This document shows positions 3,243 through 64,000 of a stretch of 64,000 nt of DNA, piece by piece. Source of the stretch: Schmidtea polychroa (lineage: Eukaryota); assembly GCA_044892525.1 (NCBI GenBank), contig CM097885.1:248001-312000 (forward strand), written 5' to 3'. The notes beneath the pieces were generated by a model. The model made no database searches. It saw only the letters and a list, made by a program, of their open reading frames with translations, and was not told the DNA's origin. The stretch's first letter is position 1. Each line of letters opens with the position of its first letter. Both the position numbers and the translations under genes were made by a program.

Positions 3243-3445
3243 TTTTAATATAATATGATTATTATTTAAATCACTGGTGACATCTACGATACCATAACCT
3301 ACTTGATTAATATTATTATAATTATTATTATTATTATTATTACCATTATTATAATAAATATTACTACTACTACTACTATTATTATTATTATTATTATCAA
3401 TTTCATCATCACTTATGTTGATTATTTCATCATCACTTATTGTGA

Positions 3446-3606
3446 TTACATCAATAACTTTAGATTTTTACTTGGTATTGAATTTATTTTTTCATTATTT
3501 TTTCTTTTATTCATATTAATAAGATTATTTATTTGATCATTTAATTTATTTACTTGATCTTTTAGATTATTTATTTCGTTTATATCATTATTATTGGTGC
3601 TGTTGA

Positions 3607-19921: not shown

Positions 19922-20139
19922 CTTTGTCTAAATAACGATATCATTAACTCAACGTTGTACGCTTATATCTGGTTTATTATTTATTTATTTTTACAATTCG
20001 TTATAGGAGTTGTTTTAGAAGTTTTACGCTTAAGTTTACTTTTAGTAGATTTGGGGGATTTTTCTACACTACTATATAATGTTTTACGGGGTATATATGC
20101 CGATATTTACAATTAGTATATACAAAATTATTCGTCTCT

Positions 20140-43180: not shown

Positions 43181-43339
43181 AGTGATTATGTAGAAAATTA
43201 TTGACATTTCAGGGGAAAATTCCAGAAATTTTTATCAATGGTTATACGTTAGTAGATGGATTGGGCACCGCTAGCACAGTACCCCCTCCCCCTCCCCCCG
43301 GTCGTAAAATTTTCAAAAAATTCTAAGTCTAAAAGTACA

Positions 43340-43860
43340 TTTTTTTTCAAGGTCAAATTTAAACAAAGACATATGACTCATCAAGGTCATTGAAACAAAG
43401 ACCATGGCTCACCAGATGACTCATCAAATTTCTCAAGGGCATTTAAACAAAGACCATGACTCATCAAGGTCATTTTCAAGGTCGTATGACTCATACTATG
43501 ACTCACCAAGGTCATTTTCAAGGTCATATGACTCATCTGACGAGTCATAAAAATTTTAAAGGTCAGTCTCAAGGTCATATGACTCATCCGATGAGGCATA
43601 AAAATTTTCAAGGTCATTTAAACAAAGACCATGATTCATTCTCAAAGTCATATGACTCATTCAAGGTCATTCTCAAGGTCATATGACTCATTCAAGGACA
43701 TTCTCAAGGTCAAATGACTCATTCACGGTCATTCTCAAGGTCATATGACTCATACTATGACTCATCAAAAATTTTCAAGGTCATCTGAGGCACCCTATGA
43801 CTCATCAAGACCATTTTCAAGGTCGCATGACTCATCTAAGGCCATTCTCAAGGTCATATT
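43340..43860. repeat. Subterminal repeat array of TGACTCA and TCAAGGTCA motifs
   Basis: More than ten copies of each motif (some with one mismatch), interleaved with AAACAAAGAC. Confidence 0.92.
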
Positions 43861-44067
43861 ATTATTTTTAAAAAATATTATTATTTTTATTATTATTTTT
43901 AAAAAATATTATTATTTTTATTATTATTTTTAAAAAAAATTATTATTTTTAATATTTTCAAAGTTCCCGTCAACGAAAATTAATATTCGATAGCTCATTT
44001 TAAAGCTCAATTCAAGGCCTTTCGAATGAGCCATATATCCTGTTATTATGATTATTATTTCTAAAGA

Positions 44068-44269
<202 letters not shown>

Positions 44270-44456
44270 CTATATACACCGAGTCTATATACTCCGAGTC
44301 TATCCGACAAAATATTTTGTCCCCCTATGGGTAATGCTCACAAGGGTACTGGTCACGCTCAACAAATCAACAAATTAACAAAGGTAAACTAAATATTGAT
44401 GTACTACTATTCGCAGCAATATTGTTAGAAATTGGTAACGTTGAATTGATTTTCCA

Positions 44457-44941: not shown

Positions 44942-45161
44942 GGCATTCGGTTAACTGGCTATTGGATGTTTTTTAACCACCATAAGCCAATTAACCCGTG
45001 GTAATAGTGTTTTCAATGCATTCGGTTAACTGGCTATTGGATGTTTATTAACCACCATAAGCCAATTAACCCCGTGGTAATAGTGTTTTCAATGCATTCG
45101 GTTAACTGGCTATTGGATGTTTTTTAACTACCATAATCCAATTAACCCAGTGGTAATAGTC
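44942..45161. repeat. ~77-bp tandem repeat, about 3 copies, overlapping the 3' end of ORF 45128-45562
   Basis: GCATTCGGTTAACTGGCTATTGGATG..CCATAAGCCAATTAACCC.GTGGTAATAGT repeated. Confidence 0.9.
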
Positions 45162-45562
45162 AATTGATATTCTATTGATCCTTTGATTGTTTGAATTTCT
45201 CTTAATAATAATTCAATCTTTTTTAACAAATAATCATGCTTCTTATCAATAATTTTCATATTCTTTTTATTTTCAGCAATAGAGTTATTGAAAACCTCAA
45301 TATGATCAATCAATTTAATTTTTATATTTTGTATATATTCAAATGTTAGTTCATAACTGTTTTCTAAATTCTCCAATCTTTGAGATATTCTTTTTCCTGG
45401 ATGCTTTGACCATTTTGGTTTATCGAGAATATATAAAATATCCATCAACTTGGCTGTATTCGGACAAACACATATTGATTTATTAAAAGACTCCAATGTT
45501 ATTGTTGTATTGTGTGAGCACACACTCGTTATAATAATTAGCAATATGAATATAGTTTTCAT
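45128..45562 (-). CDS. Predicted secreted coiled-coil protein (Maverick accessory gene)
   Basis: Signal peptide MKTIFILLIIITSVCS, CVCP motif, heptads; divergent from the Bcl-2-like gene across a CCAAT/TATA-containing spacer. Confidence 0.65.
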   Translation of the reverse strand: MKTIFILLIIITSVCSHNTTITLESFNKSICVCPNTAKLMDILYILDKPKWSKHPGKRISQRLENLENSYELTFEYIQNIKIKLIDHIEVFNNSIAENKKNMKIIDKKHDYLLKKIELLLREIQTIKGSIEYQLTITTGLIGLW

Positions 45563-45667
45563 GGTGTATCAAATCAAAACCTTTCTTTTACATTTATAGT
45601 CTATCAACCAATCAAAATCATACAGTATTAGTATAAATAAAACATCATATTTTAAATTATTGTAAAA

Positions 45668-46182
45668 ATGTCTCATTTTATGGAAAATCTTTTAAGAGAA
45701 CTCGTCAACAAGAATATTATGGAAAGCCTAAGTTTCCTGGTCGATCGGACCGAAAAGATTATAGAAGGTAATCACATTGATTATGAAGATGTGATCAATT
45801 CTGATTGTCTCGAAACCAAAAAATTCTATTTTAATAGAATTTTTAACTGTCTATGCGACGATCAGATGAAGTGGACCCGAATACTAGTAGGGTTCGCTTA
45901 TATGAAAATAATAATCCAAAGAAGTCTATGGGACTCAGAGCACTATTATCAGTGGTCTCAAGAAGTAATACTTTTATAATCTATATTTTAATAATATTTA
46001 TTTTCTAGATAATCAAGTCAAAGTTTCAGCCATGGATTGAAGCCAATGGCGGATGATGCGTGCTGAATCAACTCGCCAGAAATGCCAAGGAAGTAGATCA
46101 ACAGAAAATCAAATTTAAAAACTATTTAAAATTTGCAACAGGTGTTGCTATTTTGTATGTTTTACGTCGGTTTTTTAAATAA
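45668..46182 (+). pseudogene. Bcl-2 family homologue, two exons, nonsense codon in BH2
   Basis: BH1-like FNRIFNCLCDDQMKWTRILVGFAY; 44-nt intron 45965-46008; exon 2 IIKSKFQPWIEANGG*(TGA 46054-46056, expected W) then ..LKFATGVAILYVLRRFFK* tail anchor. Confidence 0.8.
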
Positions 46183-46259
46183 AAATTAATAAAGTTATTT
46201 TGTTTGATTTTTAAATAAAATTTTAAATAAATTTACAAACACTAATTAACTAAGATTTA

Positions 46260-46633
46260 TTAATTAACACATTTGCAGTCTTCATCTCCACATTTCATTA
46301 TATTTTCAACGACATGATCAATACAATCATTCGTAATATTATCTTTAGATTCATCTTTAGGTTCCTCTATAGGTTCATCTATAGGTTCATAGATTTTTTC
46401 TAGAGTTTCTTCCTCATCAATTTCTTGAGTTTCTTCCTCATCATCAAATCCTGTATCTTGACTCTCAACTAACCAGCCGATATTTAAGGCATTTGTAATA
46501 GATAATATGTCCTCAATTTTCAAACCAGATATTTCTGCTAACTTTTCCAACAAAAAGTTGATTAAAAATTCTAAATAATAAATAATTCGGTAATTAATTA
46601 ATCATGTTAACCTTTTTCTGCAGTCATTTTCAT
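46260..46633 (-). CDS. Small acidic protein, two exons, function unknown
   Basis: MKMTAEK exon, 41-nt intron ~46571-46611, then an acidic EE/EP-rich exon ending CGDEDCKCVN. Confidence 0.5.
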
Positions 46634-46759
46634 CACTTTAAAACTATATTATAAGTTTGTTTATAGATTTTCTTTGTTAAATTTGCATGTCATTTGCATT
46701 TATGTTGCAATTAATAAAGAAAAAAACAAATCTGACTAATACATTTATTAAATATAACA

Positions 46760-47170
46760 TTAAAATATTTGTGAAAGTCTAGCAGACATAATTTTCCAAA
46801 TAGGAGAATATACATCATTATTATCAACTTTATATCCCTGGATTGCAATTGTTATATACCAATTTTCATTTTCTTTGAAACTGATTTCATCAAAAGCATC
46901 ATAAAATCTTGCATATCTATTAATGAACCACGCATGTTGATTACACGATAGATTCGAATCTATCCGTTTAAAAACATCATCAATAGTTTTGACATCAATC
47001 ATTGAAAGCGTGCCGGATAAGAATTCAAATTTAGTTGGAATTAGCTTGACTGGTGCAACCAATTTCATATTGATTTCTTCTTTCAAAAAATACATTTTGT
47101 AGTTGTGGAACATTTGAACTGGTTGTACCATTTCTTTCGGTTTTTCGGTGCTTGAAATTTTCTTGGTCAT
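46760..47170 (-). CDS. Hypothetical Maverick protein (136 aa)
   Basis: Clean ATG ORF with upstream TATA and CCAAT and downstream AATAAA. Confidence 0.6.
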   Translation of the reverse strand: MTKKISSTEKPKEMVQPVQMFHNYKMYFLKEEINMKLVAPVKLIPTKFEFLSGTLSMIDVKTIDDVFKRIDSNLSCNQHAWFINRYARFYDAFDEISFKENENWYITIAIQGYKVDNNDVYSPIWKIMSARLSQIF

Positions 47171-47467
47171 CGTGAATAATGAATAAATTTAAATGTTACA
47201 GGGTTTTTATACCTTTGACTCATTCCTATCAACCAATCAGATTATAGTATGTCTTTTTTTAAATTGCATTCAAAATGCATTGATGTTGCATTGTCACATG
47301 TTCTATTATTTTTATTAATGTTTTATTATTAATGTTTTATTATTATTAATGTTTTATTATTTCTATTATTATTATTATTATTAATGTTTTATTATTTCTA
47401 TTATTATTATTATTATTACTATTATTATTTCAAATATAAAAAAGATAAAACACAATAAAAAATACAT

Positions 47468-47880
47468 TTATTGGTAACCTAAATCTACAATCCGGGAGTA
47501 GTGAATCCTTCTCAGAGTTTTCACTAACTCCCATTCGACATATCGCCGATATCGATCGGCACAGCATGAGCATCCGATGATGCATTGGTACTCCGGCTCC
47601 ATTTGCTTCATTGTTCTGTTGATTTTCACATCCCATAAAAATTGGTGAAAGACTATTATTCTAATTTGCGTGGCATAAAAAATCAAATCTGGTATGATTT
47701 CCGGTTCCCGATCTTTGATTACTTCAGCAATTTGCGAATAATAATATTTTATCCTATTGATCATTATTTCTAAATATTTTTCTAAAATAATAAATATAAA
47801 AAAATGTGAAAATAAAAATTTTAAATTTACCATAATCATCAATATCCTTCATGAGATTCGCGGCGCTCGGAATTTTGTAC
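47468..47880 (-). CDS. Hypothetical Cys-motif protein, probably two exons
   Basis: Main exon with QCIIGCSCCADRY; AT-rich GT..AG segment at ~47782-47830. Start uncertain. Confidence 0.45.
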
Positions 47881-47954
47881 ATAGTGAAATAAATGAATCC
47901 TAAACAAAAAACCGTTTGTTTAAATCAATCAATAACCAATTAGAAATTAACCAA

Positions 47955-48392
47955 TTAGAAATCGACCAATGAAATTATCTCATTTCGAACCTTGTCAACA
48001 AATTCTCTATACTCCAAATTTCTCAACCCCAACATGACAACCTTTCCACTAGCAAACACGTTGACACATATAGGGTTATATTTTAATAGTCTTAGTGCCG
48101 AAAACAATTCCGGTTCAAACATACAATCACATTTTTTCGACATGTTATATAGATTGATACTATGTCCCATATCCATAGTAACGGTAATTGATTGGATTAT
48201 AATATTATTTATTCGATATTGTAATTTATTAATATCCAAAGGTTTCTTACATCCCATGATTCTGCATTTACCAGTCTTGAAAAATATTATCGGATATTTC
48301 CCGCTTCTATCGATAATTTGCTGGGGTTTCCCTGGTGGGAACCTCATATTCGATACATCAAAATTTCCTCGATAATTTATATTTGCTAACAT
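47955..48392 (-). CDS. TATA-box-binding protein (TBP)-like, minimal and intronless
   Basis: Both TBP repeats recognisable: IIFFKTGKCRIMGCK; IQSITVTMDMGHSINL; FEPELFSAL; VNVFASGKVVMLGLR (cf. LIFSSGKMVCTGAK, YEPELFPGL, LLIFVSGKVVLTGAK). Confidence 0.88.
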   Translation of the reverse strand: MLANINYRGNFDVSNMRFPPGKPQQIIDRSGKYPIIFFKTGKCRIMGCKKPLDINKLQYRINNIIIQSITVTMDMGHSINLYNMSKKCDCMFEPELFSALRLLKYNPICVNVFASGKVVMLGLRNLEYREFVDKVRNEIISLVDF

Positions 48393-48491
48393 TATTAAAT
48401 CATTTATGAAAATTAGTCTTTATATACAAATTGAGCACGAGTTCATTAAATCATCGAATATAAACAAATACACATATATAAAATTTTTGAA

Positions 48492-49118
48492 ATGGAATTA
48501 AGAAATGATGCAGTATACCAAATCGTTGGTCCGAGTGGTAATGGAAAAACATTATTTGTTTGTAAATTACTAAAATCAAATTTATTCAAATCAAAATTCA
48601 ACAGGATTTATTGGCATAGGGGTGCTGATGAAGAACATGGATTAACTCAATCAAGTTTTTGTAAATTAAAAAACATGAAAATTGTAAAGGGATTCGATAA
48701 AAACTGGTCCAGCCGATTAAAGAAAGGTGATGTCATTATTATCGATGATTTGTATCAAGAAGCTAATAAAGAAAAAGATTTTAATAATTTATTTACAAAG
48801 ATCAGCAGACATGTCGGTGTAACAGTTATTTTCATAACACAAAATCTATTTCATCAAGGTGGGGCACATCGAACACGTAATTTAAATGTACAATATTTAG
48901 TTATTTTCAAGAATCCTAGAGATGCAACAGTGATTGATTTTCTTGCACGTCAAGCATACCCTAACAATCGTAATTTTCTTATCAGTGCATTTCAAGATGC
49001 AACAAAAATACCTCATGGATATATATTTCTTGATTTCACACAACAATGTTCCGATGATTTACGAGTAAAACCAGATATTTTCAACCCAAAAGGTGCCATG
49101 GTTTATAAACAAAGTTGA
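48492..49118 (+). CDS. A32-like (FtsK-HerA) genome-packaging ATPase
   Basis: Walker A GPSGNGKT, Walker B IIIDD, SRH, TQNLF, FKNPRD. Confidence 0.93.
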   Translation: MELRNDAVYQIVGPSGNGKTLFVCKLLKSNLFKSKFNRIYWHRGADEEHGLTQSSFCKLKNMKIVKGFDKNWSSRLKKGDVIIIDDLYQEANKEKDFNNLFTKISRHVGVTVIFITQNLFHQGGAHRTRNLNVQYLVIFKNPRDATVIDFLARQAYPNNRNFLISAFQDATKIPHGYIFLDFTQQCSDDLRVKPDIFNPKGAMVYKQS

Positions 49119-49136
49119 AAACCTCTATGAATAATA

Positions 49137-49670
49137 ATGTTTCTAAAAGCAAGGGTGAAAAATATTAGGAAATTAAGAAAAAGTATTAGAAAGAGTATTA
49201 AAGTTCCAAAAGTTCCACCAACAACTAGTTATACACCGTCTAAAAAACTTGTAACTGAAAATTTCTCTGCAATGAATCTTATTTCGAAAAATCCTAAACC
49301 TAAACGTAAAACCCGTAAAACTCGTAAAACCGGTAAAAAAGTAGTTAAAAATCATCGCAGTTTTCCATTTTTTAATGCATTGTTAAAGGCCCCGAGTATG
49401 AAAAGAATGAATATATTGCAATCATTCCCAAATTTTGTTGTCGATGATTTACTCAATATTATACTTAAAGTAGTCAAAGGCAAAATTAAAATCAGTAAAT
49501 CAAAAAAGAATTTATTGAGCAAACATAGGAAACCTTTATTATCTTTAGTAAATAATAAAAATCGTAAGCAAATGAGGAAAATTATATATAAACAACAATG
49601 TGGATTTATTGGTGCCTTGATACCTCTGGCATTATCATTATTAGGTGGAGTTGTAGGAAATCAATCATAA
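49137..49670 (+). CDS. Basic core/DNA-condensing protein of Maverick
   Basis: Very K/R-rich; C-terminal QQCGFIGALIPLALSLLGG resembles the QxGGF + hydrophobic tail of Maverick core proteins. Confidence 0.6.
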   Translation: MFLKARVKNIRKLRKSIRKSIKVPKVPPTTSYTPSKKLVTENFSAMNLISKNPKPKRKTRKTRKTGKKVVKNHRSFPFFNALLKAPSMKRMNILQSFPNFVVDDLLNIILKVVKGKIKISKSKKNLLSKHRKPLLSLVNNKNRKQMRKIIYKQQCGFIGALIPLALSLLGGVVGNQS

Positions 49671-49731
49671 ACAATTGGTGCTAATCCTTCATTGCCTGAC
49701 ATTAAATTTAATTTTAAATCTTCTTGTTGTA

Positions 49732-50846
<1,115 letters not shown>

Positions 50847-50850
<4 letters not shown>

Positions 50851-51254
50851 ATTTTTATATTATTTTACCTAGCAATAGCTGTCCACTTATTCATCCAGAT
50901 AATAAAGCCAGCAAATTCAGGGTCAATCTTCAAAATCCGATATATTTGGATAATAGCTGGGAAGTTGCTCTGTTGGATTTTACATTTGTATACCAAGCCT
51001 TTCCATTTTATAGTAAGGCTAAAATTGGATACAAAAAGAATGAGTGGCAGGATAGATTATTGTCTATGATCATTGATAATGCAGATGATGAAGTTCGGTT
51101 GTCTAATTCAACTGATCCAGCTGTGAAAATGTATATTAACCATCCATATATAGTAGTTGAATGTAAACATTATCCTTTTACTGTAAAATTTGATAGTTTG
51201 GAAATGGCAAAACGATTGGAATTAAAAACCCAAAGTCATAAAAGTAGTGAATAG
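50847..51254 (+). CDS. N-terminal part of Maverick minor capsid (penton-like) protein, truncated
   Basis: MNFYIILPSNS..PDNKASKFRVNL..PIYL..WEVAL is the typical N-terminus; ATGA overlap with the integrase stop; followed by non-coding AT-rich DNA. Confidence 0.7.
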
Positions 51255-51518: not shown

Positions 51519-51757
51519 TTTAATTTTATTTAATTACTTCTATTTTTTTTTCTCTTTAATTTTATTAGTTAATTATTTTATGATGTTATACTTTAATTAC
51601 TTATTTTAGTTAATTTTTAATTTATTACATTTAATTAATTAATTTGTTTATTAAAACTTTATTTTAATTGCCAACGTTATTTAATTATTATTTATTTTAT
51701 TTATTTATTTTTTAATTTTACATTATATTCTAACAAGAGCGTAAATTATAACAATAA

Positions 51758-54700
51758 TATTTCAATTTGAATAAAATTTTAATTGGTAATTATCATAAAA
51801 TAAAGCTGTGTTAATTTAAATAAAATGGGCATTAATTTTTCAAAACAAAGCAAAGTTTTTCATGATAAATAATAATTCTTACTTAAAACTAATTATCTAA
51901 ATTAATTGGACAAATGAATTATTAAATGATAAAACATATTTTAATTAACGAAGTCAAATAATTCACAATATATATTTTATTATTCACATAAATTTAATTG
52001 TTAAAGTTCTTGTTTCGATTTGCATTCATTTGTAGACGGAGCAGTTGCGATATGCATTTGACGAATCTTATAGTGACCGTAGGCATAGCTTTCATTAGAA
52101 TTGAACCAATACCTTTTTTCATCCAAACATTGGAGAGCTCGTTTTTCAGTAATGAAAGTATACAACTGATGACTAACACTTCCTATTCTCTTTTGTTCGA
52201 TGCTCACTGTTCCACCATCAGTATACACTTTTTTATAGGCTTCATGGGTGATATTAGAATTTGTAAGACTTATTCCTTTGGCTTTTAGAGTGTTTTTATC
52301 TCCTTGGAGTGAGTAGCACTTGGGTCGAAGAAACACCCATTCTTTATATTGATTTCCTTTATTCTCATCCTTGAATTTCCCGATTACCGAACAAATTTTA
52401 TCTGAGAACAATGGATCAGTCACCGGATAATTTGAAGTATCTAGGAGCCCATCGGCAATCATTTTTGGATACAGTTGTAAGCGTAAATCAACATTTTTAC
52501 ACTCTAAAAAGAAGGAATCTGTGTCACCGGCTACGATATTAATTTGACAATTGAATTCTTCTCTATAACTCTGTAGTTCTTTATATTGAAACTGGTACAT
52601 GCGAAGTTTAGATAAATCAAGTACGGTTTGTCCAATATACATTGGTCTATCTAAACACACCATTTCCTTATCAAGTATAACAGCAATGAGATCATCCGCA
52701 ATCTTGATGCTACGACGAAACATAGGATTACTACAATAAGTTATCAATCTTTTGCTTTTGCTGCATAATCTCAAATTTATACGTTTCTTAAGGTTTTCCA
52801 CGGTTTTACCATATAAACTGTTGTTCTTTAACTTATAATAATCTCGCTGAAATGAATCTGTACTAGCTGCTCTCATTTGAGTATTGTAATCAATATAGCG
52901 TTTGAAAATAGCTACTTGCTTGAATTCTACAGCACGATTAACTTTTGTGACTTTTGCGCCTTAACTCAACCACTCTGTCAAAACTCTACCATTAACTACA
53001 TAGTTTTTCTTAGGCTCATGAGTTAACAACAGCTTTTCAACTTTACTACCAGGTGGATAACAAAGCTCAGGAGCTATAGGTAAATCATCTAGCTTATCTT
53101 GTATACTATCAGGAATGACGATGTCAACCTCTAGAACATATCCACGATCTCCATCAAACTCATCCCCATTTGCACATCTTTCAACAATACCATTCATTTC
53201 AGTCTGATCATTTATCCATCTAAATTCACCAATAGGAAGTTTTTGCGACAGCGCCCATCCATATAAATTATTAACATCTAGGTATGACATTTGTGTTGAT
53301 TCATCAGCTTCAACATGATGTTTGTTGATAAATGTCATTCCACCACGAATACCAGCTTCAAATAAACGGTAAAGCTCTGGATCTTGAATAAGTTCTACCG
53401 GTTCAGGTAACTGTTTAATAGCTGATGCCCAACTTAATCCGGGTATGGAAACAAACGATAAAGCCTCAAGTCCATCTTCGTCAAATGTTTTTTCTCTGAA
53501 AGCTTCAAAAACATCGGCCAACACAAAAACATCGGCCAACACAAAAACATCCAACTTGAGATATACTAGCATGTAATCTAGCAGTGTCTCACAGTTATAT
53601 TGTCGCCAGATTTGATTTGCATGTATATAATCTTCTTGACTAACTCCCTCCTAAATCGATGGTAATTCTGTTATTGACTGTAAAACATCCATTGACGTAG
53701 CAATATCATAAGGAAATATGCCTTTACCAGTTATTAGATGCGAATTGAAAATCTTTGAAGTAAGTGGAAGACGTGGCAAGTTTTTTGATAAATTTGCCAA
53801 GCTGCTATTTAAAAATTGTAAAGAATCAATGAATCTAATTCTTCTGCCTTTCGATGTCGCTGTAAGTGTGAGAAACTTTTCTGTTGATTGAGGAATAACA
53901 ATTAAATTCCAATCTGGGAATTTTCCAATTGCATATTTTAATATATGATGAATGTCATATCCACGAAGATTATGAAATACAACAGGTAAAGACGGATTGA
54001 TTCTTCTAGCCAAATTACAATCTTGACACGCTGCTCCGAGATATTGACCAGTAAAATGATCATGATCTCGAACAGGTATATTGATAATCTTTTTACAAAG
54101 GTAGCAATGAGTTTGAGTCGTGAATTCTTCCTGCTCTTCCCAAGTGAGTTCCATCATTTCCTTTGATCCATTAATTTTATACCACGGATAAACTATGTCT
54201 GTAGCTATATCATCCAATGCTTGTATGAACTGAATGATACAGTTTTTCCCAACAAATGTTTCATTTCGGATCGGACAACCTTGATGGAGAAGCACAAATT
54301 CAGATGCAATCGGCTCATGTTTTTGGAAGTGTTTGTCATCTAGAGGTAATATCGATTCAAAGTCCGCGTAGACAACAAACTGCTGTTTTATAGTTTTACT
54401 CCAATCTTTAAATTCGATATATTTATTCTCTGGCATTGAGTATAGAGTCGTACGCTCCACATTCTTCCTACAAAGACCTATATGTCTTTCAAAAGCAGGA
54501 CGTTTTTGAAACCCATGAAGACACGTATGACACCAATGTGATTGGATTCTGACTCCTTCTACTCTATCTCTGTAATTCAGCAGTCGATCGAGATTAGTTA
54601 CAGCCAAAAAATGATAATTTAATTCTAAATTTAGTTAATATTTTTAATGATTAAAGGAAATATTACCTTCTTCAATCAATAGGAGATATATCTGAGATCC

Positions 54701-54911
54701 CGTCGAAGTACTTCTATATACCAAGTCAATGAACGGATTCTTGAAAATATCATTAGTTTTTTGTTTAATTGGATCTTTATTATATTTGAGAACATTGATC
54801 GCTAGATTTGGATTAATTGCTTCAAATTGGCAAATGTTAACCAACTTCATCGGAAACCATTCAAATTTCCATTTTAAGTCTTAAAAACAAAATTCAATGA
54901 TTTATGACATT

Positions 54912-54968
<57 letters not shown>

Positions 54969-57176
54969 CCACTTAAGTTATATTTTGTTGTTCTTTCTCT
55001 ATTCCGACGTATATCATCATAACGTAACACAGCTAGTATGCTATATAAAAAACAGAATTGATCATTGTTTTGAACATTAACTAAAGCCTGACAGTTTTTC
55101 AGGTAATTTGGCGTTTTAATGTAACTTGAACCTAAGTAATCTCTTGATTTATATATATAATAATGTAAATAATCTTACCAGATACATGTATTATGTCTGA
55201 TAATTTAGTTAAAATCATAGTAACTTCTAATATTTTATGAATTCTCCACCCACTACTTTGTTGAGTGTATTTCTCCAACTTTCTTTTAATTTTTCAATTC
55301 CATCATTAATAAATGAAGATGACATTGTAATTGCTTTATTCGACAAACACCATTTTTTAATTTCACCATCCTCTTTGATAAACTCTGCACAAAGTCCAAA
55401 TTGGATTTTTACTGTCCCCATTCGTTGAATATGATCTTCTATTTCTTTGATGAGACAATCTGGAACAACAATGTCAGGAGAATTAATTGCAGATACATCG
55501 CTTGTCAATTCAACACGAGAACCGTTTAAGTCAGACTCCCGACGTGGACACAATTGTATATTAGAGTCTCCATTTCCGTAAAATATTGACTTTCGTTTTG
55601 TGGTGCCAGAGTTTTGTCTAACTATATTTATAATTAATATTAAACAACTTAAATAACATAACTTGTAACATAATCTTTAATCTCCTTAGGATCGTATGAT
55701 GTATTCATTTTCGATTGTACTATAAAAAATTAATAATTGTTAATAGTAGAAAGAGTATTACTTTTAGTGATCATCCTGCTCTTCGTTTCTTCGAATCTTC
55801 TAAGATGGTGTCCGTGTTGTCGTACAAACATTAACCACCTACCTGGTGTTATAATGAGACATTCCGGACATATGTAACCCGATAAGGTAGAGTCATTTAT
55901 CTTGAAATATGATGATGTAACTGATTTACAGTTCTCCACATCTTCATGACTTTCGGCAATACAAAATTTATATAAACTGCATCCGTTCACTAAAAAATAA
56001 TCATTAATATTAGATAGAGAATAAAAATTTATTCACTTATATAAGTTAAATTAAAAGTTTAAATGACAAACATTTGAAAAGTTACTGCTTATATATTACA
56101 CATGATTAAATTCTGACCAATCAAAATCAAGGAAGGGGTAGGAAAAATAAATATATTCTGACCAATCAAAATCAAGGAAGGGGTAGGAAAAATACATGCA
56201 TTACATTGCAGTATTTTAAAACTTAAATTTTAAAACACATTTTGACGCTAAAGTTGACTTATTTAACATTTTCATAATAATTTAATAAAAATAATGTGTT
56301 GAACTCACAAAGTAATATCATTTTTTCATCAAATTGCAAAACAGTAATAACGTTTTCATAAAATTGTAACAAAGTAATAACATATTTCAGATAAATTTTC
56401 AACAGTTGTAAAATATTTAAACAAATTGTAACAAGATTAGAAAATATTACAACAAAGTAGTAACATATTTCAGAAAATTTCAACAAAGTTGTAAAATATT
56501 TATCAAATTGTAACTAAAATAATAAAAATATTGCAACAAAGTAATAAAATAATGATGTTAATTGGGACAAATCAATACATTATTTCGAAGACGGACAACA
56601 AATTAAAAAAGAATATTGTAATAAATTGTGAAGTCTTTCAGTAAATTACAACAAAGTAATAACATATTTCGGAAATATTTCACCAGATGTAAAATATTTA
56701 AGCAAATTGTTATAAGATTATAAAAATATTGCAACAAAGTAATAAAATAATACAACATTTTAAACTCTAGATCAATCCATTTTATAGAAAATTAAATTTT
56801 ATCTCTATAATATATGAATAAATATACAAGGAAATTACGTTAACGTATAATAAATACAAATTTATCGTAAAAACATGTGTGTATTACACACAAAACAAGA
56901 TACATAATTTCTAATCAATCCATTTTATAGAAAATTAAATTTTATCTATATATCATATGAATAAAATCCTAAGAAAATTACGTTAACCGCGCGAAAAATA
57001 CAAATTTATTGTAAAAACATGTGTGCATTACACACAAAGCACCAAACTGAAATTGTAATTGCGCCGTGTTGTAGAGAATTAAATTCTGCCTATACATTGT
57101 TACACTTAAATTTCGATCAGACCTGTGAAAAGAGACATAAAAGAGAAAGAACAGTAGAGTAGTATGATTGGGGCCA
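51758..57176 (-). repeat. Left arm of a long inverted duplication (mirror of 58411-64000)
   Basis: Reverse-complement near-identity; mirrored ORFs 55730-55990/59741-60001, 54644-54850/60894-61100, 56259-56486/59245-59472. The outer limit cannot be fixed because the right arm leaves the window. Confidence 0.96.
52001..55990 (-). pseudogene. Inactivated copy of the Maverick pPolB
   Basis: Versus the plus-strand copy: TGG>TAG (53651-53653), TAC>TAA (52961-52963), 18-nt duplication (VFVLAD twice), 1-nt deletion near 55280. Confidence 0.93.
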
Positions 57177-58428
57177 TCCAGACCAGGAGCTCCCCTGGCC
57201 ACATACACCCCCTCCCCCCCCCGGAAAAAAAAATTTTTAGAACGATGCCACATATTTTTAGAACTATTACGTAATCGATGCCACATATTTTTAGAACTAT
57301 TACGTAATCGATGGTACATACTTTTAGAACGACGCCACATATTTTTAGAACTATTACGAAATCGATGCCACATATTTTTAGAACGATGCCATGTTATTAG
57401 TGGCCCAGCGGGCTCACACTTTTTTTTCATCCCAAAAGTTAATGTTCCCGCCATCAGATTTTATTGGACGATACCTCATCTTAAAGCCCAGTGCAGGACC
57501 TTTAAGATGTGCTATAGGTATTTTATATATCTTTAATAGTTTTAATGTTATTAACATTTAATGACCACCATCTTTTCAAAGTTAAATTATTATTATTTGT
57601 CAAAATATTATTAATTGGCCCAGCGGGCTCACACTTTTTTTCATCTCAAAGATTAATGTTCCCGCCAACATATTATATTGATCGATAGCTTATTTTAAAG
57701 CTCTGTGCAAGAACTTTCTAATGAGATATAGATTTTTATCATACGATGACTCATCACATTTTTAGAACAAAGACAGTGACTCATCATATTTTTAGAACTA
57801 TTACGTAATCAACGCCTAATATTTTTAGAACGATGTCTAATATTTTTAGAACGATTACGTCATATTTTTAGAACGATGCCTCTTATTTTTAGAATGATTA
57901 CGTCATAATTTTAGAACGATGCCTCTTATTTTTAGAATGATTACGTCATAATTTTAGAACGATGCCTAATATTTTTAGAACGATGCCTCTTATTTTTAGA
58001 ATGATTACGTCATAATTTTAGAACGATGTCAAATATTTTTAGAACGATGCCTCTTATTTTTAGAATGATTACGTCATAATTTTAGAACGATGCCTAATAT
58101 ATTTAGAACGATGCCTATTATTTTTAGAATGATTACGTCATAATTTTAGAACGATGTCTAATATTTTTAGAACGATGCTTAATATTTTTAGAACTATTAC
58201 GTAATTTTTTTTTTTAAATTAATTGGTCCAGCGGTGACCTACTTTTTTTCTTCCCAAAAGTAATGTTTCCATCATCCGAATTTATTAATCAAACACTTAT
58301 TTTAAAGCCCAGTGCAAAATCTATATACTGATATATAAATATTATTATTAACATTATTTTACACACGGGGGGAGAGGGTATATGTGGCCGAGCGGGCTCC
58401 TGGCCAGGCGGGCCCCAATCATACTACT
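57158..58428. mobile_element. 1271-bp segment bounded by Maverick-like termini, filled with short repeats
   Basis: AGTAGTATGATTGGGGCC.. and ..GGCCCCAATCATACTACT, with imperfect inverted similarity for ~60 bp including a C-tract; internal TTTTTAGAAC, TTACGTAA and TTACGTCA repeats. Confidence 0.7.
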
Positions 58429-60763
58429 CTACTGTTCTTTCTCTTTTATGTCTCTTTTCACAGGTCTGATCGAAATTTAAGTGTAACAATGTATAGGCAG
58501 AATTTAATTCTCTACAACACGGCGCAATTACAATTTCAGTTTGGTGCTTTGTGTGTAATGCACACATGTTTTTACAATAAATTTGTATTTTTTCGCGCGC
58601 TTAACGTTATTTTCTTGGATTTTTATTCATTTAATATATAGATAAAATTTAATTTTCTATAAAATAGCTTGATTAAAAATTATGTCTCGTATGTTGTGTG
58701 TAATACACACATGTTTTTACGATAAATTTGTATTTTTCGCGCGGTTAACGTAATTTTCTTAGGATTTTATTCATATGATATATAGATAAAATTTAATTTT
58801 CTATAAAATGGATTGATTAGAAATTATGTATCTTGTTTTGTGTGTAATACACACATGTTTTTACGATAAATTTGTATTTATTATACGTTAACGTAATTTC
58901 CTTGTATATTTATTCATATATTATAGAGATAAAATTTAATTTTCTATAAAATGGATTGATCTAGAGTTTAAAATGTTGTATTATTTTATTACTTTGTTGC
59001 AATATTTTTATAATCTTATAACAATTTGCTTAAATATTTTACATCTGGTGAAATATTTCCGAAATATGTTATTACTTTGTTGTAATTTACTGAAAGACTT
59101 CACAATTTATTACAATATTCTTTTTTAATTTGTTGTCCGTCTTCGAAATAATGTATTGATTTGTCCCAATTAACATCATTATTTTATTACTTTGTTGCAA
59201 TATTTTTATTATTTTAGTTACAATTTGATAAATATTTTACAACTTTGTTGAAATTTTCTGAAATATGTTACTACTTTGTTGTAATATTTTCTAATCTTGT
59301 TACAATTTGTTTAAATATTTTACAACTGTTGAAAATTTATCTGAAATATGTTATTACTTTGTTACAATTTTATGAAAACGTTATTACTGTTTTGCAATTT
59401 GATGAAAAAATGATATTACTTTGTGAGTTCAACACATTATTTTTATTAAATTATTATGAAAATGTTAAATAAGTCAACTTTAGCGTCAAAATGTGTTTTA
59501 AAATTTAAGTTTTAAAATACTGCAATGTAATGCATGTATTTTTCCTACCCCTTCCTTGATTTTGATTGGTCAGAATATATTTATTTTTCCTACCCCTTCC
59601 TTGATTTTGATTGGTCAGGATTTAATCATGTGTAATATATAAGCAGTAACTTTTCAAATGTTTGTCATTTAAACTTTTAATTTAACCTATATAAGTGAAT
59701 AAATTTTTATTCTCTATCTAATATTAATGATTATTTTTTAGTGAACGGATGCAGTTTATATAAATTTTGTATTGCCGAAAGTCATGAAGATGTGGAGAAC
59801 TGTAAATCAGTTACATCATCATATTTCAAGATAAATGACTCTACCTTATCGGGTTACATATGTCCGGAATGTCTCATTATATCACCAGGTAGGTGGTTAA
59901 TATTTGTACGACAACACGGACACCATCTTAGAAGATTCGAAGAAACGAAGAGCAGGATGATCACTAAAAGTAATACTCTTTCTACTATTAACAATTATTA
60001 ATTTTTTATAGTACAATCGAAAATGAATACATCATACGATCCTAAGGAGATTAAAGATTATGTTACAAGTTATGTTATTTAAGTTGTTTAATATTAATTA
60101 TAAATATAGTTAGACAAAACTCTGGCACCACAAAACGAAAGTCAATATTTTACGGAAATGGAGACTCTAACATACAATTGTGTCCACGTCGGGAGTCTGA
60201 CTTAAACGGTTCTCGTGTTGAATTGACAAGCGATGTATCTGCAATTAATTCTCCTGACATTGTTGTTCCAGATTGTCTCATCAAAGAAATAGAAGATCAT
60301 ATTCAACGAATGGGGACAGTAAAAATCCAATTTGGACTTTGTGCAGAGTTTATCAAAGAGGATGGTGAAATTAAAAAATGGTGTTTGTCGAATAAAGCAA
60401 TTACAATGTCATCTTCATTTATTAATGATGGAATTGAAAAATTAAAAGAAAAGTTGGAGAAATACACTCAACAAAGTAGTGGGTGGAGAATTCATAAAAT
60501 ATTAGAAGTTACTATGATTTTAACTAAATTATCAGACATAATACATGTATCTGGTAAGATTATTTACATTATTATATATATAAATCAAGAGATTACTTAG
60601 GTTCAAGTTACATTAAAACGCCAAATTACCTGAAAAACTGTCAGGCTTTAGTTAATGTTCAAAACAATGATCAATTCTGTTTTTTATATAGCATACTAGC
60701 TGTGTTACGTTATGATGATATACGTCGGAATAGAGAAAGAACAACAAAATATAACTTAAGTGG

Positions 60764-60832
<69 letters not shown>

Positions 60833-63800
60833 AATGTCATAAATCATTGAATTTTGTTTTTAAGACTTAAAATGGAAATTTGAATGGTTTCCGATGAAGT
60901 TGGTTAACATTTGCCAATTTGAAGCAATTAATCCAAATCTAGCGATCAATGTTCTCAAATATAATAAAGATCCAATTAAACAAAAAACTAATGATATTTT
61001 CAAGAATCCGTTCATTGACTTGGTATATAGAAGTACTTCGACGGGATCTCAGATATATCTCCTATTGATTGAAGAAGGTAATATTTCCTTTAATCATTAA
61101 AAATATTAACTAAATTTAGAATTAAATTATCATTTTTTGGCTGTAACTAATCTCGATCGACTGCTGAATTACAGAGATAGAGTAGAAGGAGTCAGAATCC
61201 AATCACATTGGTGTCATACGTGTCTTCATGGGTTTCAAAAACGTCCTGCTTTTGAAAGACATATAGGTCTTTGTAGGAAGAATGTGGAGCGTACGACTCT
61301 ATACTCAATGCCAGAGAATAAATATATCGAATTTAAAGATTGGAGTAAAACTATAAAACAGCAGTTTGTTGTCTACGCGGACTTTGAATCGATATTACCT
61401 CTAGATGACAAACACTTCCAAAAACATGAGCCGATTGCATCTGAATTTGTGCTTCTCCATCAAGGTTGTCCGATCCGAAATGAAACATTTGTTGGGAAAA
61501 ACTGTATCATTCAGTTCATACAAGCATTGGATGATATAGCTACAGACATAGTTTATCCGTGGTATAAAATTAATGGATCAAAGGAAATGATGGAACTCAC
61601 TTGGGAAGAGCAGGAAGAATTCACGACTCAAACTCATTGCTACCTTTGTAAAAAGATTATCAATATACCTGTTCGAGATCATGATCATTTTACTGGTCAA
61701 TATCTCGGAGCAGCGTGTCAAGATTGTAATTTGGCTAGAAGAATCAATCCGTCTTTACCTGTTGTATTTCATAATCTTCGTGGATATGACATTCATCATA
61801 TATTAAAATATGCAATTGGAAAATTCCCAGATTGGAATTTAATTGTTATTCCTCAATCAACAGAAAAGTTTCTCACACTTACAGCGACATCGAAAGGCAG
61901 AAGAATTAGATTCATTGATTCTTTACAATTTTTAAATAGCAGCTTGGCAAATTTATCAAAAAACTTGCCACGTCTTCCACTTACTTCAAAGATTTTCAAT
62001 TCGCATCTAATAACTGGTAAAGGCATATTTCCTTATGATATTGCTACGTCAATGGATGTTTTACAGTCAATAACAGAATTACCATCGATTTGGGAGGGAG
62101 TTAGTCAAGAAGATTATATACATGCAAATCAAATCTGGCGACAATATAACTGTGAGACACTGCTAGATTACATGCTAGTATATCTCAAGTTGGATGTTTT
62201 TGTGTTGGCCGATGTTTTTGAAGCTTTCAGAGAAAAAACATTTGACGAAGATGGACTTGAGGCTTTATCGTTTGTTTCCATACCCGGATTAAGTTGGGCA
62301 TCAGCTATTAAACAGTTACCTGAACCGGTAGAACTTATTCAAGATCCAGAGCTTTACCGTTTATTTGAAGCTGGTATTCGTGGTGGAATGACATTTATCA
62401 ACAAACATCATGTTGAAGCTGATGAATCAACACAAATGTCATACCTAGATGTTAATAATTTATATGGATGGGCGCTGTCGCAAAAACTTCCTATTGGTGA
62501 ATTTAGATGGATAAATGATCAGACTGAAATGAATGGTATTGTTGAAAGATGTGCAAATGGGGATGAGTTTGATGGAGATCGTGGATATGTTCTAGAGGTT
62601 GACATCGTCATTCCTGATAGTATACAAGATAAGCTAGATGATTTACCTATAGCTCCTGAGCTTTGTTATCCACCTGGTAGTAGAGTTGAAAAGCTGTTGT
62701 TAACTCATGAGCCTAAGAAAAACTATGTAGTTAATGGTAGAGTTTTGACAGAGTGGTTGAGTTACGGCGCAAAATTCACAAAAGTTAATCGTGCTGTAGA
62801 ATTCAAGCAAGTAGCTATTTTCAAACGCTATATTGATTACAATACTCAAATGAGAGCAGCTAGTACAGATTCATTTCAGCGAGATTATTATAAGTTAAAG
62901 AACAACAGTTTATATGGTAAAACCGTGGAAAACCTTAAGAAACGTATAAATTTGAGATTATGCAGCAAAAGCAAAAGATTGATAACTTATTGTAGTAATC
63001 CTATGTTTCGTCGTAGCATCAAGATTGCGGATGATCTCATTGCTGTTATACTTGATAAGGAAATGGTGTGTTTAGATAGACCAATGTATATTGGACAAAC
63101 CGTACTTGATTTATCTAAACTTCGCATGTACCAGTTTCAATATAAAGAACTACAGAGTTATAGAGAAGAATTCAATTGTCAAATTAATATCGTAGCCGGT
63201 GACACAGATTCCTTCTTTTTAGAGTGTAAAAATGTTGATTTACGCTTACAACTGTATCCAAAAATGATTGCCGATGGGCTCCTAGATACTTCAAATTATC
63301 CGGTGACTGATCCATTGTTCTCAGATAAAATTTGTTCGGTAATCGGGAAATTCAAGGATGAGAATAAAGGAAATCAATATAAAGAATGGGTGTTTCTTCG
63401 ACCCAAGTGCTACTCACTCCAAGGAGATAAAAACACTCTAAAAGCCAAAGGAATAAGTCTTACAAATTCTAATATCACCCATGAAGCCTATAAAAAAGTG
63501 TATACTGATGGTGGAACAGTGAGCATCGAACAAAAGAGAATAGGAAGTGTTAATCATCAGTTGTATACTTTCATTACTGAAAAACGAGCTCTCCAATGTT
63601 TGGATGAAAAAAGGTATTGGTTCAATTCTAATGAAAGCTATGCCTACGGTCACTATAAGATTCGTCAAATGCATATCGCAACTGCTCCGTCTACAAATGA
63701 ATGCAAATCGAAACAAGAACTTTAACAATTAAATTTATGTGAATAATAAAATATATATTGTGAATTATTTGACTTCGTTAATTAAAATATGTTTTATCAT

Positions 63801-64000
63801 TTAATAATTCATTTGTCCAATTAATTTAGATAATTAGTTTTAAGTAAGAATTATTATTTATCATGAAAAACTTTGCTTTGTTTTGAAAAATTAATGCCCA
63901 TTTTATTTAAATTAACACAGCTTTATTTTATGATAATTACCAATTAAAATTTTATTCAAATTGAAAAATTACTAATTAAAATTTTATTCAAATTGAAATA
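58411..64000 (+). repeat. Right arm of the inverted duplication
   Basis: Mirror of 51758-57176; has one extra ~145-bp tandem unit (58560-58960 array) and a longer (TA)n. Confidence 0.96.
59741..63725 (+). CDS. Apparently intact, intron-containing Maverick protein-primed DNA polymerase B
   Basis: Introns 60554-60600, 60763-60864 and 61078-61119 join one open frame. Motifs YADFES, CYLC..DHDHFTG..C..CNL, FHNLRGYD, YLDVNNLYG, KLKNNSLYGK, GDTDS, KFKDE, PKCY. 5' exons upstream of ~60114 unresolved. Confidence 0.92.

Follow-up and report, generated by a model that had tools for sequence, protein, structure and literature searches.

The question raised by this locus is whether a mobile element carries a TBP of its own, where such a gene came from and which promoters it would serve. 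The window, that is the whole stretch of 64,000 nucleotides of the Schmidtea polychroa genome that was analysed, holds a 145-aa reading frame that the initial annotation described as an intronless TBP homologue with a reduced first repeat, lying head-to-head with the virion-module genes of a Maverick/Polinton. The frame was found exactly so on the minus strand (Table 1). It is single and uninterrupted, in contrast to the host TBP core, which has introns, and the divergent arrangement with 99 bp to the ATPase start codon was likewise borne out. A 113-aa antisense frame (48034-48375, plus strand) resembles relatives merely through its overlap with the conserved TBP frame and was discarded.

The element and its genes

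By its gene content the element appears to be an adintovirus-like Maverick/Polinton of ~18 kb, present in very many near-identical copies in the genome. The genes predicted for it are pPolB, an rve integrase, an A32-type ATPase, an adenain-like protease and virion-module genes, together with ~1-kb terminal inverted repeats. In a full copy (copy C), the inverted arms (2458-3463 and 19752-20557) are 73-87% identical, and the element spans ~18.1 kb. The copy in the window stops at ~51242, and full copies run on past p355 into the p122, p406, protease and PolB genes.

Table 1. Features of the element copy and its surroundings, in window positions.
Feature	Position	Strand	Remarks
Left terminal repeat region	43251..44382		Tandem sub-repeats; inverted at far end of full copies
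103-aa ORF	45668..45979	+	Weak Bcl-2 match PF00452, E 0.006, 17.5 bits, below cut-off 31.4
136-aa protein, p142 family	46760..47170	-	Predicted OB fold resembling viral SSBs, AF2 pLDDT 88.6
123-aa ORF, lineage-specific	47468..47839	-	Immediately 3' of TBP-like gene; no Pfam family, no TFIIB signal at E<=1
TBP-like gene	47955..48392	-	145 aa; ORF, Pfam TBP, AF2 model, fold matches, intact copies
Divergent intergenic region, TBP-like/ATPase	48393..48491		99 bp; one promoter-like element per direction
TGTATATAAAG, canonical-looking putative TATA box	48418..48428	-	~34 nt upstream of TBP-like ATG
TATAAACAA motif, candidate late promoter element	48459..48467	+	33 nt upstream of ATPase ATG
A32/FtsK-type packaging ATPase	48492..49118	+	PF04665 Pox_A32, 27.3 bits vs cut-off 22.8
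TATAAACAA motif	49104..49112	+	33 nt upstream of 'core' ATG, within ATPase coding end
Lysine-rich 177-aa protein	49137..49670	+	No Pfam or PHROG family
ATAAACAA motif	49667..49674	+	65 nt upstream of integrase ATG
rve-type integrase with C-terminal chromodomain	49732..50850	+	Sub-threshold Pfam matches
ATAAACAA motif	50777..50784	+	19 nt upstream of p355 (355-aa gene) ATG
p355, first 152 of 355 residues	50796..51254	+	Element copy stops within this frame
Palindromic pair of sister-lineage PolB ends	51755..63971		Outside this element; abuts truncated copy

In the ATPase-core-integrase-capsid cluster of the initial annotation, the "capsid" frame comprises only the beginning of p355, and a capsid identity of p355 and p406 was not established by Pfam, PHROG, Atlas or PDB profile comparisons. 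For p406, one of the seven family members had a weak match to PF21738 (DJR-like; E 0.039), one Atlas cluster had a 15% share of the PF21738-type family, and a profile search of the PDB gave no matches. The integrase matches PF00665 (rve) with an E-value of 1.3e-5 (25.9 bits, below the cut-off of 32.6) and also Chromo (18.5 bits) and rve_3, both under their curated cut-offs; in this copy it is interrupted by an in-frame poly-isoleucine microsatellite (~50121-50220). The lysine-rich 177-aa protein possibly has a core or DNA-condensing role, judging from its composition alone. The protease was identified as a 155-aa ORF of another copy (copy A; PF00770, 25.9 bits vs a cut-off of 21.3).

The PolB genes of the window belong to a sister Maverick lineage and lie in a palindrome with arms at 51755-57098 and 58633-63971. 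The 871-aa PolB of this lineage matches PF03175 (E 7e-32). An 861-aa ORF of copy A, from the lineage that carries the TBP-like gene, is 54% identical to it over 823 aa and did not itself reach PF03175 at E<=0.01.

The typical neighbour of the TBP-like gene is p142, syntenic in 15 of 49 metagenome loci. Its model is closest to ASFV CP312R (Z 7.4), the Enc34 SSB (Z 7.0) and T7 gp2.5 (Z 6.5), and p142 was dropped as a candidate TBP cofactor because of this likeness to viral SSBs. No TFIIB or cyclin partner was detected at E<=1 among 14 ORFs that adjoin TBP-like genes or lie at other places of the element, nor at E<=0.01 among the ORFs of copy A. The host TFIIB gene is split by introns, and the single-exon host match of TFIIB type is, we assume, BRF1-like. 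The genome also has multi-copy TFIIB-like ORFs.

A TBP with a reduced first repeat

The HMM search supports TBP homology: PF00352 matches the protein in two stretches with an E-value of 4e-14 (52.6 bits vs a cut-off of 22.9), and the sister allele in locus L093 reaches 62.5 bits. Among PDB sequences, 35 of the 36 chains matched at E<=1 by phmmer are TBPs, with the E. cuniculi TBP at the top (4e-8). The AF2 model (pLDDT 97.4, pTM 0.86) predicts a TBP fold, and the Foldseek matches in the PDB at E<=1e-3 are TBPs in 44 of 44 cases (top E 6e-9, TMq 0.74). The predicted saddle is common to cellular TBP (PF00352; PDB 1YTB, 1CDW and 7EGB chain P), with query-normalised TM-scores of 0.68-0.77, and the likeness includes a complete repeat 2, the stirrup E-P-E-L-F and, judging by alignment, probably three of the four Phe that intercalate into DNA. 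In contrast, the cellular core is encoded by the host and has ~180 aa, whereas the present protein is encoded by a mobile element and its repeat 1 is devoid of H1 and H2.

The reduction of the first repeat, already seen in the initial annotation, is recovered in the model, where repeat 1 consists of strands only (aa 2-48) and is helix-free. Repeat 2 is complete, with a strand-helix-strand-helix arrangement at aa 62-142 and strands across 62-123. In the alignment to host TBP, both helix positions of repeat 1 are deleted and both are retained in repeat 2, and the repeat 1 stirrup is shortened in the alignment as well as in the model. In cellular TBP, the repeat-1 helices make up half of the convex face. 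As modelled, the protein has thus retained the DNA saddle and the C-terminal stirrup and lost both repeat-1 helices, and to our knowledge it is the smallest natural two-repeat TBP.

Residues were mapped to DNA and TFIIB contacts by sequence alignment to host TBP and from general knowledge of TBP structures. Cellular TBP has four DNA-intercalating phenylalanines, two per repeat. F38, F97 and F113, which are invariant or near-invariant across 78 sequences, align with what we take to be three of these four, and the fourth position corresponds, by alignment only, to I26, a variable aliphatic residue. The stirrup is present as E93-P94-E95-L96-F97, with E95 invariant and E93 and F97 near-invariant in the same 78 sequences; its E-P-E-L residues are presumably those that contact TFIIB in TBP. 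Finally, several DNA-facing positions are altered relative to host TBP in the alignment and have become constant across the family (N6, I26, R44, M46, S68, T70 and N111).

Distribution, origin and selection

Relatives of the TBP-like protein are widespread. In the protein database, 63 of 69 candidates are short relatives, all with PF00352, and 491 representative clusters match at E<=1e-3. Among the 49 metagenome loci with a relative, 27 also contain element genes, and all 11 contigs of at least 3.5 kb have ATPase, integrase, capsid-module and PolB neighbours. IMG/VR viral contigs contained no relatives of the TBP-like protein, the ATPase or the p406 family. Judged by this distribution, the gene is conserved in the whole Maverick/adintovirus-like lineage.

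A host origin was considered, in which the gene would be a recent TBP/TRF retrocopy or a decaying passenger captured by this single copy. Its lack of introns, as opposed to the intron-bearing host TBP, is compatible with this, as is the presence in the host genome of several full-length TBP paralogues that are also intronless. However, identity to host TBPs is 19-23%, and a branch with an SH-aLRT of 99 separates Maverick-type from full-length TBPs in a tree of 87 Maverick-type rows and full-length TBPs that include two host paralogues. The same reduced architecture also recurs in hundreds of database clusters, Maverick genes surround it in unrelated metagenome contigs, and the gene is under apparent purifying selection. 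Taken together, identity, tree, database spread, synteny and selection rule out a recent host retrocopy, to which we give virtually no credence. The two outcomes contrary to the initial annotation, absence of a TBP fold and a one-off recent host retrocopy, were both examined and neither was found.

Four alleles of the gene occur in the genome, with pairwise dN of 0.29-0.37, dS from 1.1 to saturated and a dN/dS of ~0.15; although old (dS >1), they are housed in near-identical element backbones. All 150 genomic matches that were scored, from 4147 first-look candidates, are intact, with 97-100% amino acid identity. These substitution patterns point to purifying selection on the gene as a genuine TBP-family member of the element's gene set. 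Among near-identical copies (29 of 30 loci, the frame having escaped a string search in the other), a pN/pS of 0.08 was obtained, a value biased by the choice of loci as best protein matches and left out of the case for selection.

TBP-like proteins with the TBP fold are likewise encoded by Nucleocytoviricota (the asfarvirus B263R family and the mimivirus-type TFIID/TBP), and 26 fold matches at E<=1e-3 were found in BFVD, the top one from Heterosigma akashiwo virus (2.6e-8). These proteins are longer than the 145-aa protein, and its identity to them (7-19%) is lower than to cellular TBPs (20-25%). Most Nucleocytoviricota TBPs serve a virus-encoded RNA polymerase.

Closer to the present case, the gene label "TBP" appears in the legend of Fig. 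5 of Starrett et al. 2021 (PMC8502044) for MELD viruses with an adintovirus-like PolB, pointing likewise to a TBP-like gene in a Maverick-related virus of middle size with PolB and integrase. In the parts of that article available to us, the label is a bare legend abbreviation in a section on datasets from non-animal eukaryotes, with no analysis alongside, and the text of one of its supplements has no match to "TBP" or "TATA". A literature search on Maverick, Polinton or adintovirus with TBP or promoter gave nothing beyond this legend. The statement of the initial annotation that TBP is not among the Maverick core genes therefore needs qualifying, at least as far as this legend goes.

A late-gene motif and its possible reader

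The two directions of the divergent intergenic region differ in their promoter-like elements. Towards the TBP-like gene lies a putative TATA box of the type TGTATATAAAG, matched once in the window against 0.11 expected. Towards the ATPase lies the motif T-ATAAAC-AA of the virion module, which is new in this analysis. The region has only ~55-66% nucleotide identity to those of the sister alleles, yet ATATAAACAA is kept in four of four. The motif is identical in all four TBP alleles, so there is no covariation of protein and motif to draw on. In all 10 non-redundant relatives from metagenomes, the ATPase gene is preceded by the core ATAAAC.

The most frequent 8-mer of upstream regions is TATAAACA (27 of 130, vs 2.6 expected). 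Within 130 nt upstream, sense-strand ATAAAC is found at 36 of 38 virion-module genes (antisense, 0 of 38), and at 5 of 50 TBP, p142 (SSB) and PolB genes. In the background, 9.2% of windows contain it, and the Fisher p is 7e-17. The counts do not represent independent events, since many of the sites fall within the coding sequence of the preceding gene and share a common descent. In the window itself the motif precedes four of four late genes and none of the three genes TBP, p139 and p142, and the sister alleles are alike. Its distance to the start codon is mostly 31-51 nt, and the 65-nt spacing to the integrase recurs in L092, L093, L094 and L098. The base before the core varies (T in 28 of 39 sites), a variation that a classical TATA box would poorly tolerate. 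Across the whole window, TATAAACA occurs 8 times against 8.2 expected, i.e. at chance, and the signal is thus positional.

These data lead us to favour, with reasonable though not high confidence, a late-promoter TBP encoded by the element and working with host Pol II, whose binding to the motif we infer. This reading gains support from the specificity of the conserved ATAAACAA motif for the virion module and from the conservation of the TFIIB-contact stirrup. Points against it are the variable base before the core, the fit of ATAAACA to a forkhead consensus, the shared descent of the sites, the chance-level abundance of TATAAACA in the window, the uniform motif of the four alleles and the failure to detect a TFIIB-like gene among the 14 ORFs searched. 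The TBP-like gene would be transcribed by the host machinery from an ordinary TATA-plus-initiator-like promoter, and its product would bind T-ATAAAC-AA before the ATPase, core, integrase, p355, p122 and p406 genes. The retained stirrup would recruit host TFIIB and RNA polymerase II, and the virion (late) module would be switched on. The element encodes no RNA polymerase and probably steers that of the host to its own late genes; as the initial annotation proposed, Pol II may in this way be redirected to late promoters. Cellular TBP places its repeat 1 on the 3' half of a TATA box, and the altered repeat 1 would here come to lie on the non-canonical "ACAA" stretch of the motif. The loss of the repeat-1 helices may in addition let the protein evade those host regulators that hold TBP by this surface.

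Other readers of the motif can be envisaged. Host factors, either of forkhead type or host TBP taking the site as a plain TATAAA, could read ATAAACAA, and the TBP-like protein would then act elsewhere, for example on early or replication genes or by bending the AT-rich terminal repeats during protein-primed replication. In favour of this, the forkhead consensus RYAAAYA has ATAAACA as a matching core, the position before the core is variable, the TBP-like gene adjoins a replication-type SSB-like gene, and the link between protein and motif is one that we infer. Nevertheless, we find this rather unlikely: the distance to the start codon is narrow, the sites are on the sense strand only and stand before nearly every tightly packed late gene, a pattern more in keeping with a core promoter element than with an enhancer site. 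In addition, the most conserved residues of the family are those of the DNA saddle and the TFIIB stirrup. The motif could also have no reader of this kind and act, through its ATAAA, as a variant polyadenylation signal of the preceding gene, the link with TBP being coincidental. Genes are tightly packed, so that the 3' end of one is the 5' flank of the next, and TATAAA is a weak variant of AATAAA. However, the motif before the ATPase lies between divergent genes, and no gene on its upstream side runs in the same direction (in the window, the four alleles, L050 and L076), and conservation reaches past the hexamer to C-A-A, which makes this explanation very improbable.

The protein could alternatively be a decoy or repressor, a minimal TBP that would sit on TATA boxes or sequester TFIIB, fail to support assembly of a full pre-initiation complex and in this way dampen host transcription or keep the element quiet (latency). 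The repeat-1 helices form much of the cofactor surface of TBP, and a protein that has lost both and kept the stirrup could behave in this manner. Against this, the family is conserved in many lineages along with the late-gene motif, nothing that was observed points to repression, and the known viral analogues of TBP act positively, namely giant-virus TBPs and the herpesvirus late-gene factors (abstract of PMC12529657; fold matches in BFVD). We therefore consider repression unlikely, slightly more so than a reading of the motif by host factors.

For the favoured late-promoter TBP, the nearest functional parallel is with the TBP mimics of herpesvirus late genes (KSHV ORF24, EBV BcRF1 and HCMV UL87), which share the proposed principle by analogy only. 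These mimics are large and recruit Pol II directly. No sequence relationship between them and the TBP-like protein is detectable, and unlike them the latter is a bona fide PF00352 member with a TFIIB stirrup; BcRF1 (E 3.7e-2) and a herpesvirus U58 protein (1.1e-2) are among the weak fold matches in BFVD, at ranks 40 and 50. In that principle, a DNA virus of the nucleus that lacks an RNA polymerase encodes a TBP-like factor, which recognises a late promoter of non-canonical TATA type and brings host Pol II to it (cf. the abstract of PMC12529657).

Joining these observations, we tentatively suggest a self-contained two-step programme, possible but for now less probable than its late-promoter component. 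A host-type TATA-plus-initiator promoter would yield the minimal TBP, which would displace host TBP at a late promoter of its own, T-ATAAAC-AA, before every virion-module gene. With its repeat-1 helices gone, this protein would go unnoticed by the host factors that hold TBP in check or take it off DNA, and the TBP gene with its promoter region would form a cassette swapped by recombination between element lineages that reside in the same genome.

Mavericks/Polintons are considered ancestral or closely related to many DNA viruses of eukaryotes. A pared-down element TBP together with a conserved late-gene motif provides a concrete, testable model of how virion genes are switched on in the nucleus by Mavericks. 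The great abundance of intact, nearly identical copies suggests that the element was active recently, and this genome would be a setting where the late-promoter model could be tried. The minimal two-repeat TBP may also be useful for asking which parts of TBP serve promoter recognition and TFIIB recruitment. If the model is true, the strategy of a viral TBP for late genes, as in herpesviruses and giant viruses, would extend to small integrating viruses of animals.

A TBP-fold protein encoded by a Maverick/Polinton element

The 145-residue product of the TBP-like ORF matches the Pfam TBP profile PF00352 in two stretches, the stronger at residues 64-125; the score is 52.6 bits, where the curated cut-off stands at 22.9, and the E-value is 4e-14. 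When the PDB was searched with its sequence, 35 of the 36 chains at E<=1 were TBPs, the best being that of E. cuniculi (4e-8). A structure model built with an alignment of 78 relatives (pLDDT 97.4, pTM 0.86) displays a complete TBP repeat at residues 62-142 (strand, helix, four strands, long helix), preceded at residues 2-48 by four strands and zero helices. All 44 Foldseek matches in the PDB at E<=1e-3 are TBPs (best E 6e-9; query-normalised TM-scores to PDB TBPs 0.68-0.77). Giant-virus TBP-like proteins come on top of the 26 matches at E<=1e-3 among predicted viral structures; their identity to the element protein (7-19%) is below that of cellular TBPs (20-25%). The ORF is on the minus strand, and its start codon is divergent to that of the A32-type ATPase gene and 99 bp from it; the coordinates, size, orientation and reduced first repeat given in the initial annotation are therefore all correct. 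TBP identity and membership in the element can be regarded as virtually certain.

Compared with the host TBP, the element protein lacks most of helix H1 of repeat 1 and a 13-residue block at repeat-1 helix H2, and its repeat-1 stirrup is shorter. Five columns are invariant across the 78 sequences (F38, E95, N111, F113 and G116) and ten nearly so (P23, R44, M46, G47, L81, E93, F97, P107, V110 and G122). From alignment to the host TBP and the structures of TBP-DNA and TBP-TFIIB complexes, we take F38, F97 and F113 to be three of the four intercalating phenylalanines, the fourth position being held by a variable aliphatic residue (I26), and E93-P94-E95-L96 to be the stirrup that contacts TFIIB. 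The strongest constraint thus falls where DNA binding and TFIIB recruitment would be expected. R44, M46 and N111 presumably lie at DNA-facing positions, where canonical TBP has V, T and L. On these alignments, the DNA-facing surface appears to be changed, above all in repeat 1.

The window copy of the element is truncated. In three further copies of this genome, similarity to the window is confined to one segment, beyond which come genes that the window copy lacks. A full copy opens on one strand, in this order, with a Bcl-2-like ORF, the SSB-like p142, the small ORF p139 and the TBP-like gene. The other strand then carries the ATPase, a basic 177-aa protein (core), the integrase, p355, p122, p406, an adenain-like protease of 155 aa (PF00770, 25.9 bits, cut-off 21.3), three ORFs of unknown family, a PolB of 861 aa and the RING-finger ORF. 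This PolB is 54% identical to the other PolB of the window, which matches PF03175 (E 7e-32). Copy C, one of the fuller copies, spans ~18.1 kb and has inverted terminal repeats of ~1 kb. The genes present are those of an adintovirus-type Maverick/Polinton; p406 and p355 as capsid genes are only a lead. No RNA polymerase gene was present among the element ORFs scanned, and no TFIIB-like neighbour of the TBP-like gene was found by Pfam.

Several other ORFs of the element deserve mention (Table). The usual neighbour of the TBP-like gene, a 136-aa ORF, has a predicted OB-type domain (pLDDT 88.6). The structures that it matches best are those of viral single-stranded-DNA-binding proteins (ASFV CP312R, Z 7.4; phage Enc34 SSB, Z 7.0; T7 gp2.5, Z 6.5; baculovirus LEF-3, Z 5.0). 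Judging from the model, it is probably the replication SSB of the element. An in-frame poly-isoleucine microsatellite (ATT/ATA-type) extends the integrase ORF of the window copy to 372 aa, against 295-366 aa in other copies. The 144-aa ORF, kept in copy C, has an N-terminal signal-like hydrophobic stretch and weak coiled-coil-type matches (Fib_alpha, E 7e-4, below cut-off). The Bcl-2-like ORF matches PF00452 weakly (E 0.006, below cut-off), and the RING-finger ORF, situated towards the PolB end in full copies, matches PF13920 (E 6e-10); Bcl2 and IAP homologues are mentioned in adintoviruses by Starrett et al. (PMC8502044).

Elsewhere in the window, the arms of a large palindrome, 98-100% complementary as assembled, consist of PolB ends from a sister lineage of Mavericks. 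Two in-frame stops and a duplication of 18 nt break up the PolB of the left arm, and that of the right arm is a single open 871-aa frame; the structure is either a genuine head-to-head insertion or a fold-back artefact of assembly. Another region differs from the remaining window by a strongly negative AT skew (-0.25 to -0.47) and a GC of about 0.34-0.40.

Table. Location of the features discussed (window positions unless a locus or contig is named)
Feature	Location	Strand
TBP-like ORF	47955-48392	-
ATPase (A32-type) start codon	48492	+
Segment shared with three other copies	about 45166-51242	
136-aa ORF (homologues in loci L040-L078)	46760-47170	-
Poly-isoleucine microsatellite, integrase ORF	50121-50220	
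Bcl-2-like ORF	45668-45979	+
144-aa ORF	45128-45562	-
RING-finger ORF	L033:2838-3161	+
Palindrome arms	51755-57098 / 58633-63971	
Skewed region	16000-38000	
Intronless host TBP paralogue	L089:5069-5713	-
Intronless host TBP paralogue	L090:4835-5443	-
Host TBP paralogue	L091	
TFIIB-cyclin-repeat ORFs, outside window	G000:C3:38.2-39.1 Mb and C1:23.8-24.2 Mb	
~190-aa ORF, TBP-like gene after protease gene	L060, L064, L066, L067, L071, L073	

Copies, relatives and exchange of the TBP-like gene

In the 781-Mb assembly that contains the window, 150 matches to the protein were scored out of 4147 first-look candidates; every one is full-length and stop-free, with 97-100% amino acid identity. Among the 30 best loci, the ORF was located in 29, where it differs by 0.69% of nucleotides on average. 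The canonical host TBP, which has introns inside its core, and two intronless full-length host paralogues share 19-23% identity with the element protein. Among 69 protein-database candidates, 63 are relatives, all short (96-194 aa) and all with PF00352, and an exhaustive search of 1.84 billion representatives gave 491 clusters at E<=1e-3, 101 of them at E<=1e-10. Some metagenome members already bear the name "TATA-box binding protein" in the automatic JGI annotation. A quick maximum-likelihood tree had 97 rows and omitted partial host exons. To 78 relatives selected because their coverage was nearly full, it added three sister alleles, two paralogues from the host, seven TBPs of full length and seven longer odd forms. 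A branch with an SH-aLRT of 99 parts 87 Maverick-type rows from the full-length TBPs, with which one row, P0200, groups. The intact copies, the low identity to host TBPs, this branch and the width of the family show that the gene is neither a host retrocopy nor a one-off.

The genome also holds, outside the window, several intronless two-repeat TBP paralogues (PF00352, 157 and 131 bits), with no Maverick genes within 5 kb of them, and two further intron-containing paralogues besides the canonical gene. The TFIIB cyclin repeat (PF00382, 38-44 bits) is matched by at least 12 intronless ORFs of 301-310 aa that lie in clusters and may belong either to a mobile element or to a host gene family.

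Relatives are encoded at 49 metagenome loci, out of 141 pattern matches. A search with the ORFs of copy A, another fuller copy, found other element genes at 27 of these, including all 11 loci of at least 3.5 kb. The TBP-like gene lies 5' of the ATPase gene and co-directional with it at nine loci, divergent from it as in the window at two, and 3' of the p406 and protease genes at six; it is thus a stable gene of the lineage, flexible in position. At six loci where the TBP-like gene follows the protease gene, a conserved ORF of ~190 aa, which belongs to no known family, begins ~50-140 nt after it and could be a lineage-specific partner.

At least three further TBP alleles exist in the same genome (154, 156 and 170 aa), 54-62% identical to the window protein and each lying head-to-head with the ATPase gene, in elements whose ATPase, core and integrase are 90-97% identical to those of the window. 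Nucleotide identity falls from 93-100% to 55-67% inside the first half of the ATPase gene and, at L094, a carrier of one sister allele, climbs again past the TBP gene. Between alleles, the TBP gene has a dN of 0.29-0.37 and a dS from 1.1 to saturation, and the flanking ATPase and SSB-like genes a dS of 0.32-0.51. The alleles are therefore old, under purifying selection, and shifted between backbones by recombination. From these sequence comparisons, the TBP region appears to be an exchangeable cassette.

Two classes of upstream sequence

The TBP-ATPase intergenic regions of the four alleles align poorly, yet all hold ATATAAACAA ~32-34 nt 5' of the ATPase start codon. In an unbiased count over the 70 nt upstream of 130 ORFs from 27 metagenome loci, TATAAACA was the top 8-mer (27 regions, 2.6 expected). 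The core ATAAAC, which agrees with the forkhead consensus RYAAAYA, was counted on the sense strand up to 130 nt upstream after removal of near-duplicate loci (40 of 49 kept). It precedes the late genes, i.e. those of the virion module, in 36 of 38 cases (ATPase 10/10, core 4/4, p122 5/5, p406 6/6, p355 6/7, integrase 5/6; antisense 0/38), and the early genes rarely (TBP 5/35, p142 0/13, PolB 0/2), against a background of 9.2% among windows of 130 nt. Comparing late with early genes, Fisher's test gives 7e-17, for sites that are related by descent and many of which lie inside upstream coding sequence. The consensus reads T (28/39), ATAAAC, A (36/39), A (27/39), and the core lies 19-121 nt from the start codon, mostly at 31-51 or about 90-106 nt. 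Each of the four late genes that the window contains (ATPase, core, integrase and the stump of p355) has the motif upstream, and none of TBP, p139 and p142 does; window-wide, the 8-mer is at chance level (8 found, 8.2 expected). Close to the start codon, the TBP-like genes have TATA-like boxes together with short sequences of the TCA(T/G)T type instead; many relatives have a TTGTTT(T/A)A element as well. Two upstream-sequence classes are thus present in the element.

A candidate late-promoter factor

The TBP-like protein would be made from a host-type promoter and would bind the ATAAACAA element of the virion-module genes, its altered repeat 1 being placed over the non-canonical 3' part of that element. 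The retained stirrup would bring in host TFIIB and Pol II, and host factors that grip TBP via the repeat-1 helices may have been escaped. Taken as a whole, we consider this late-promoter reading somewhat more probable than its contrary. The finding itself is real, and the suggestion in the initial annotation of an element-encoded transcription factor that may direct Pol II to late promoters holds as far as computation reaches.

The nearest functional precedent is the herpesvirus late-gene TBP mimic (PMC12529657). The only link in print between these elements and TBP that we came across is a "TBP" gene label for related MELD viruses in the Fig. 5 legend of Starrett et al. (PMC8502044), one supplement of which gives zero matches to TBP or TATA. 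Virus-encoded TBPs are already known. The literature searched does not describe a solitary TBP with a helix-less first repeat that is a fixed gene in a Maverick lineage of animals and is accompanied by a dedicated late-gene motif.
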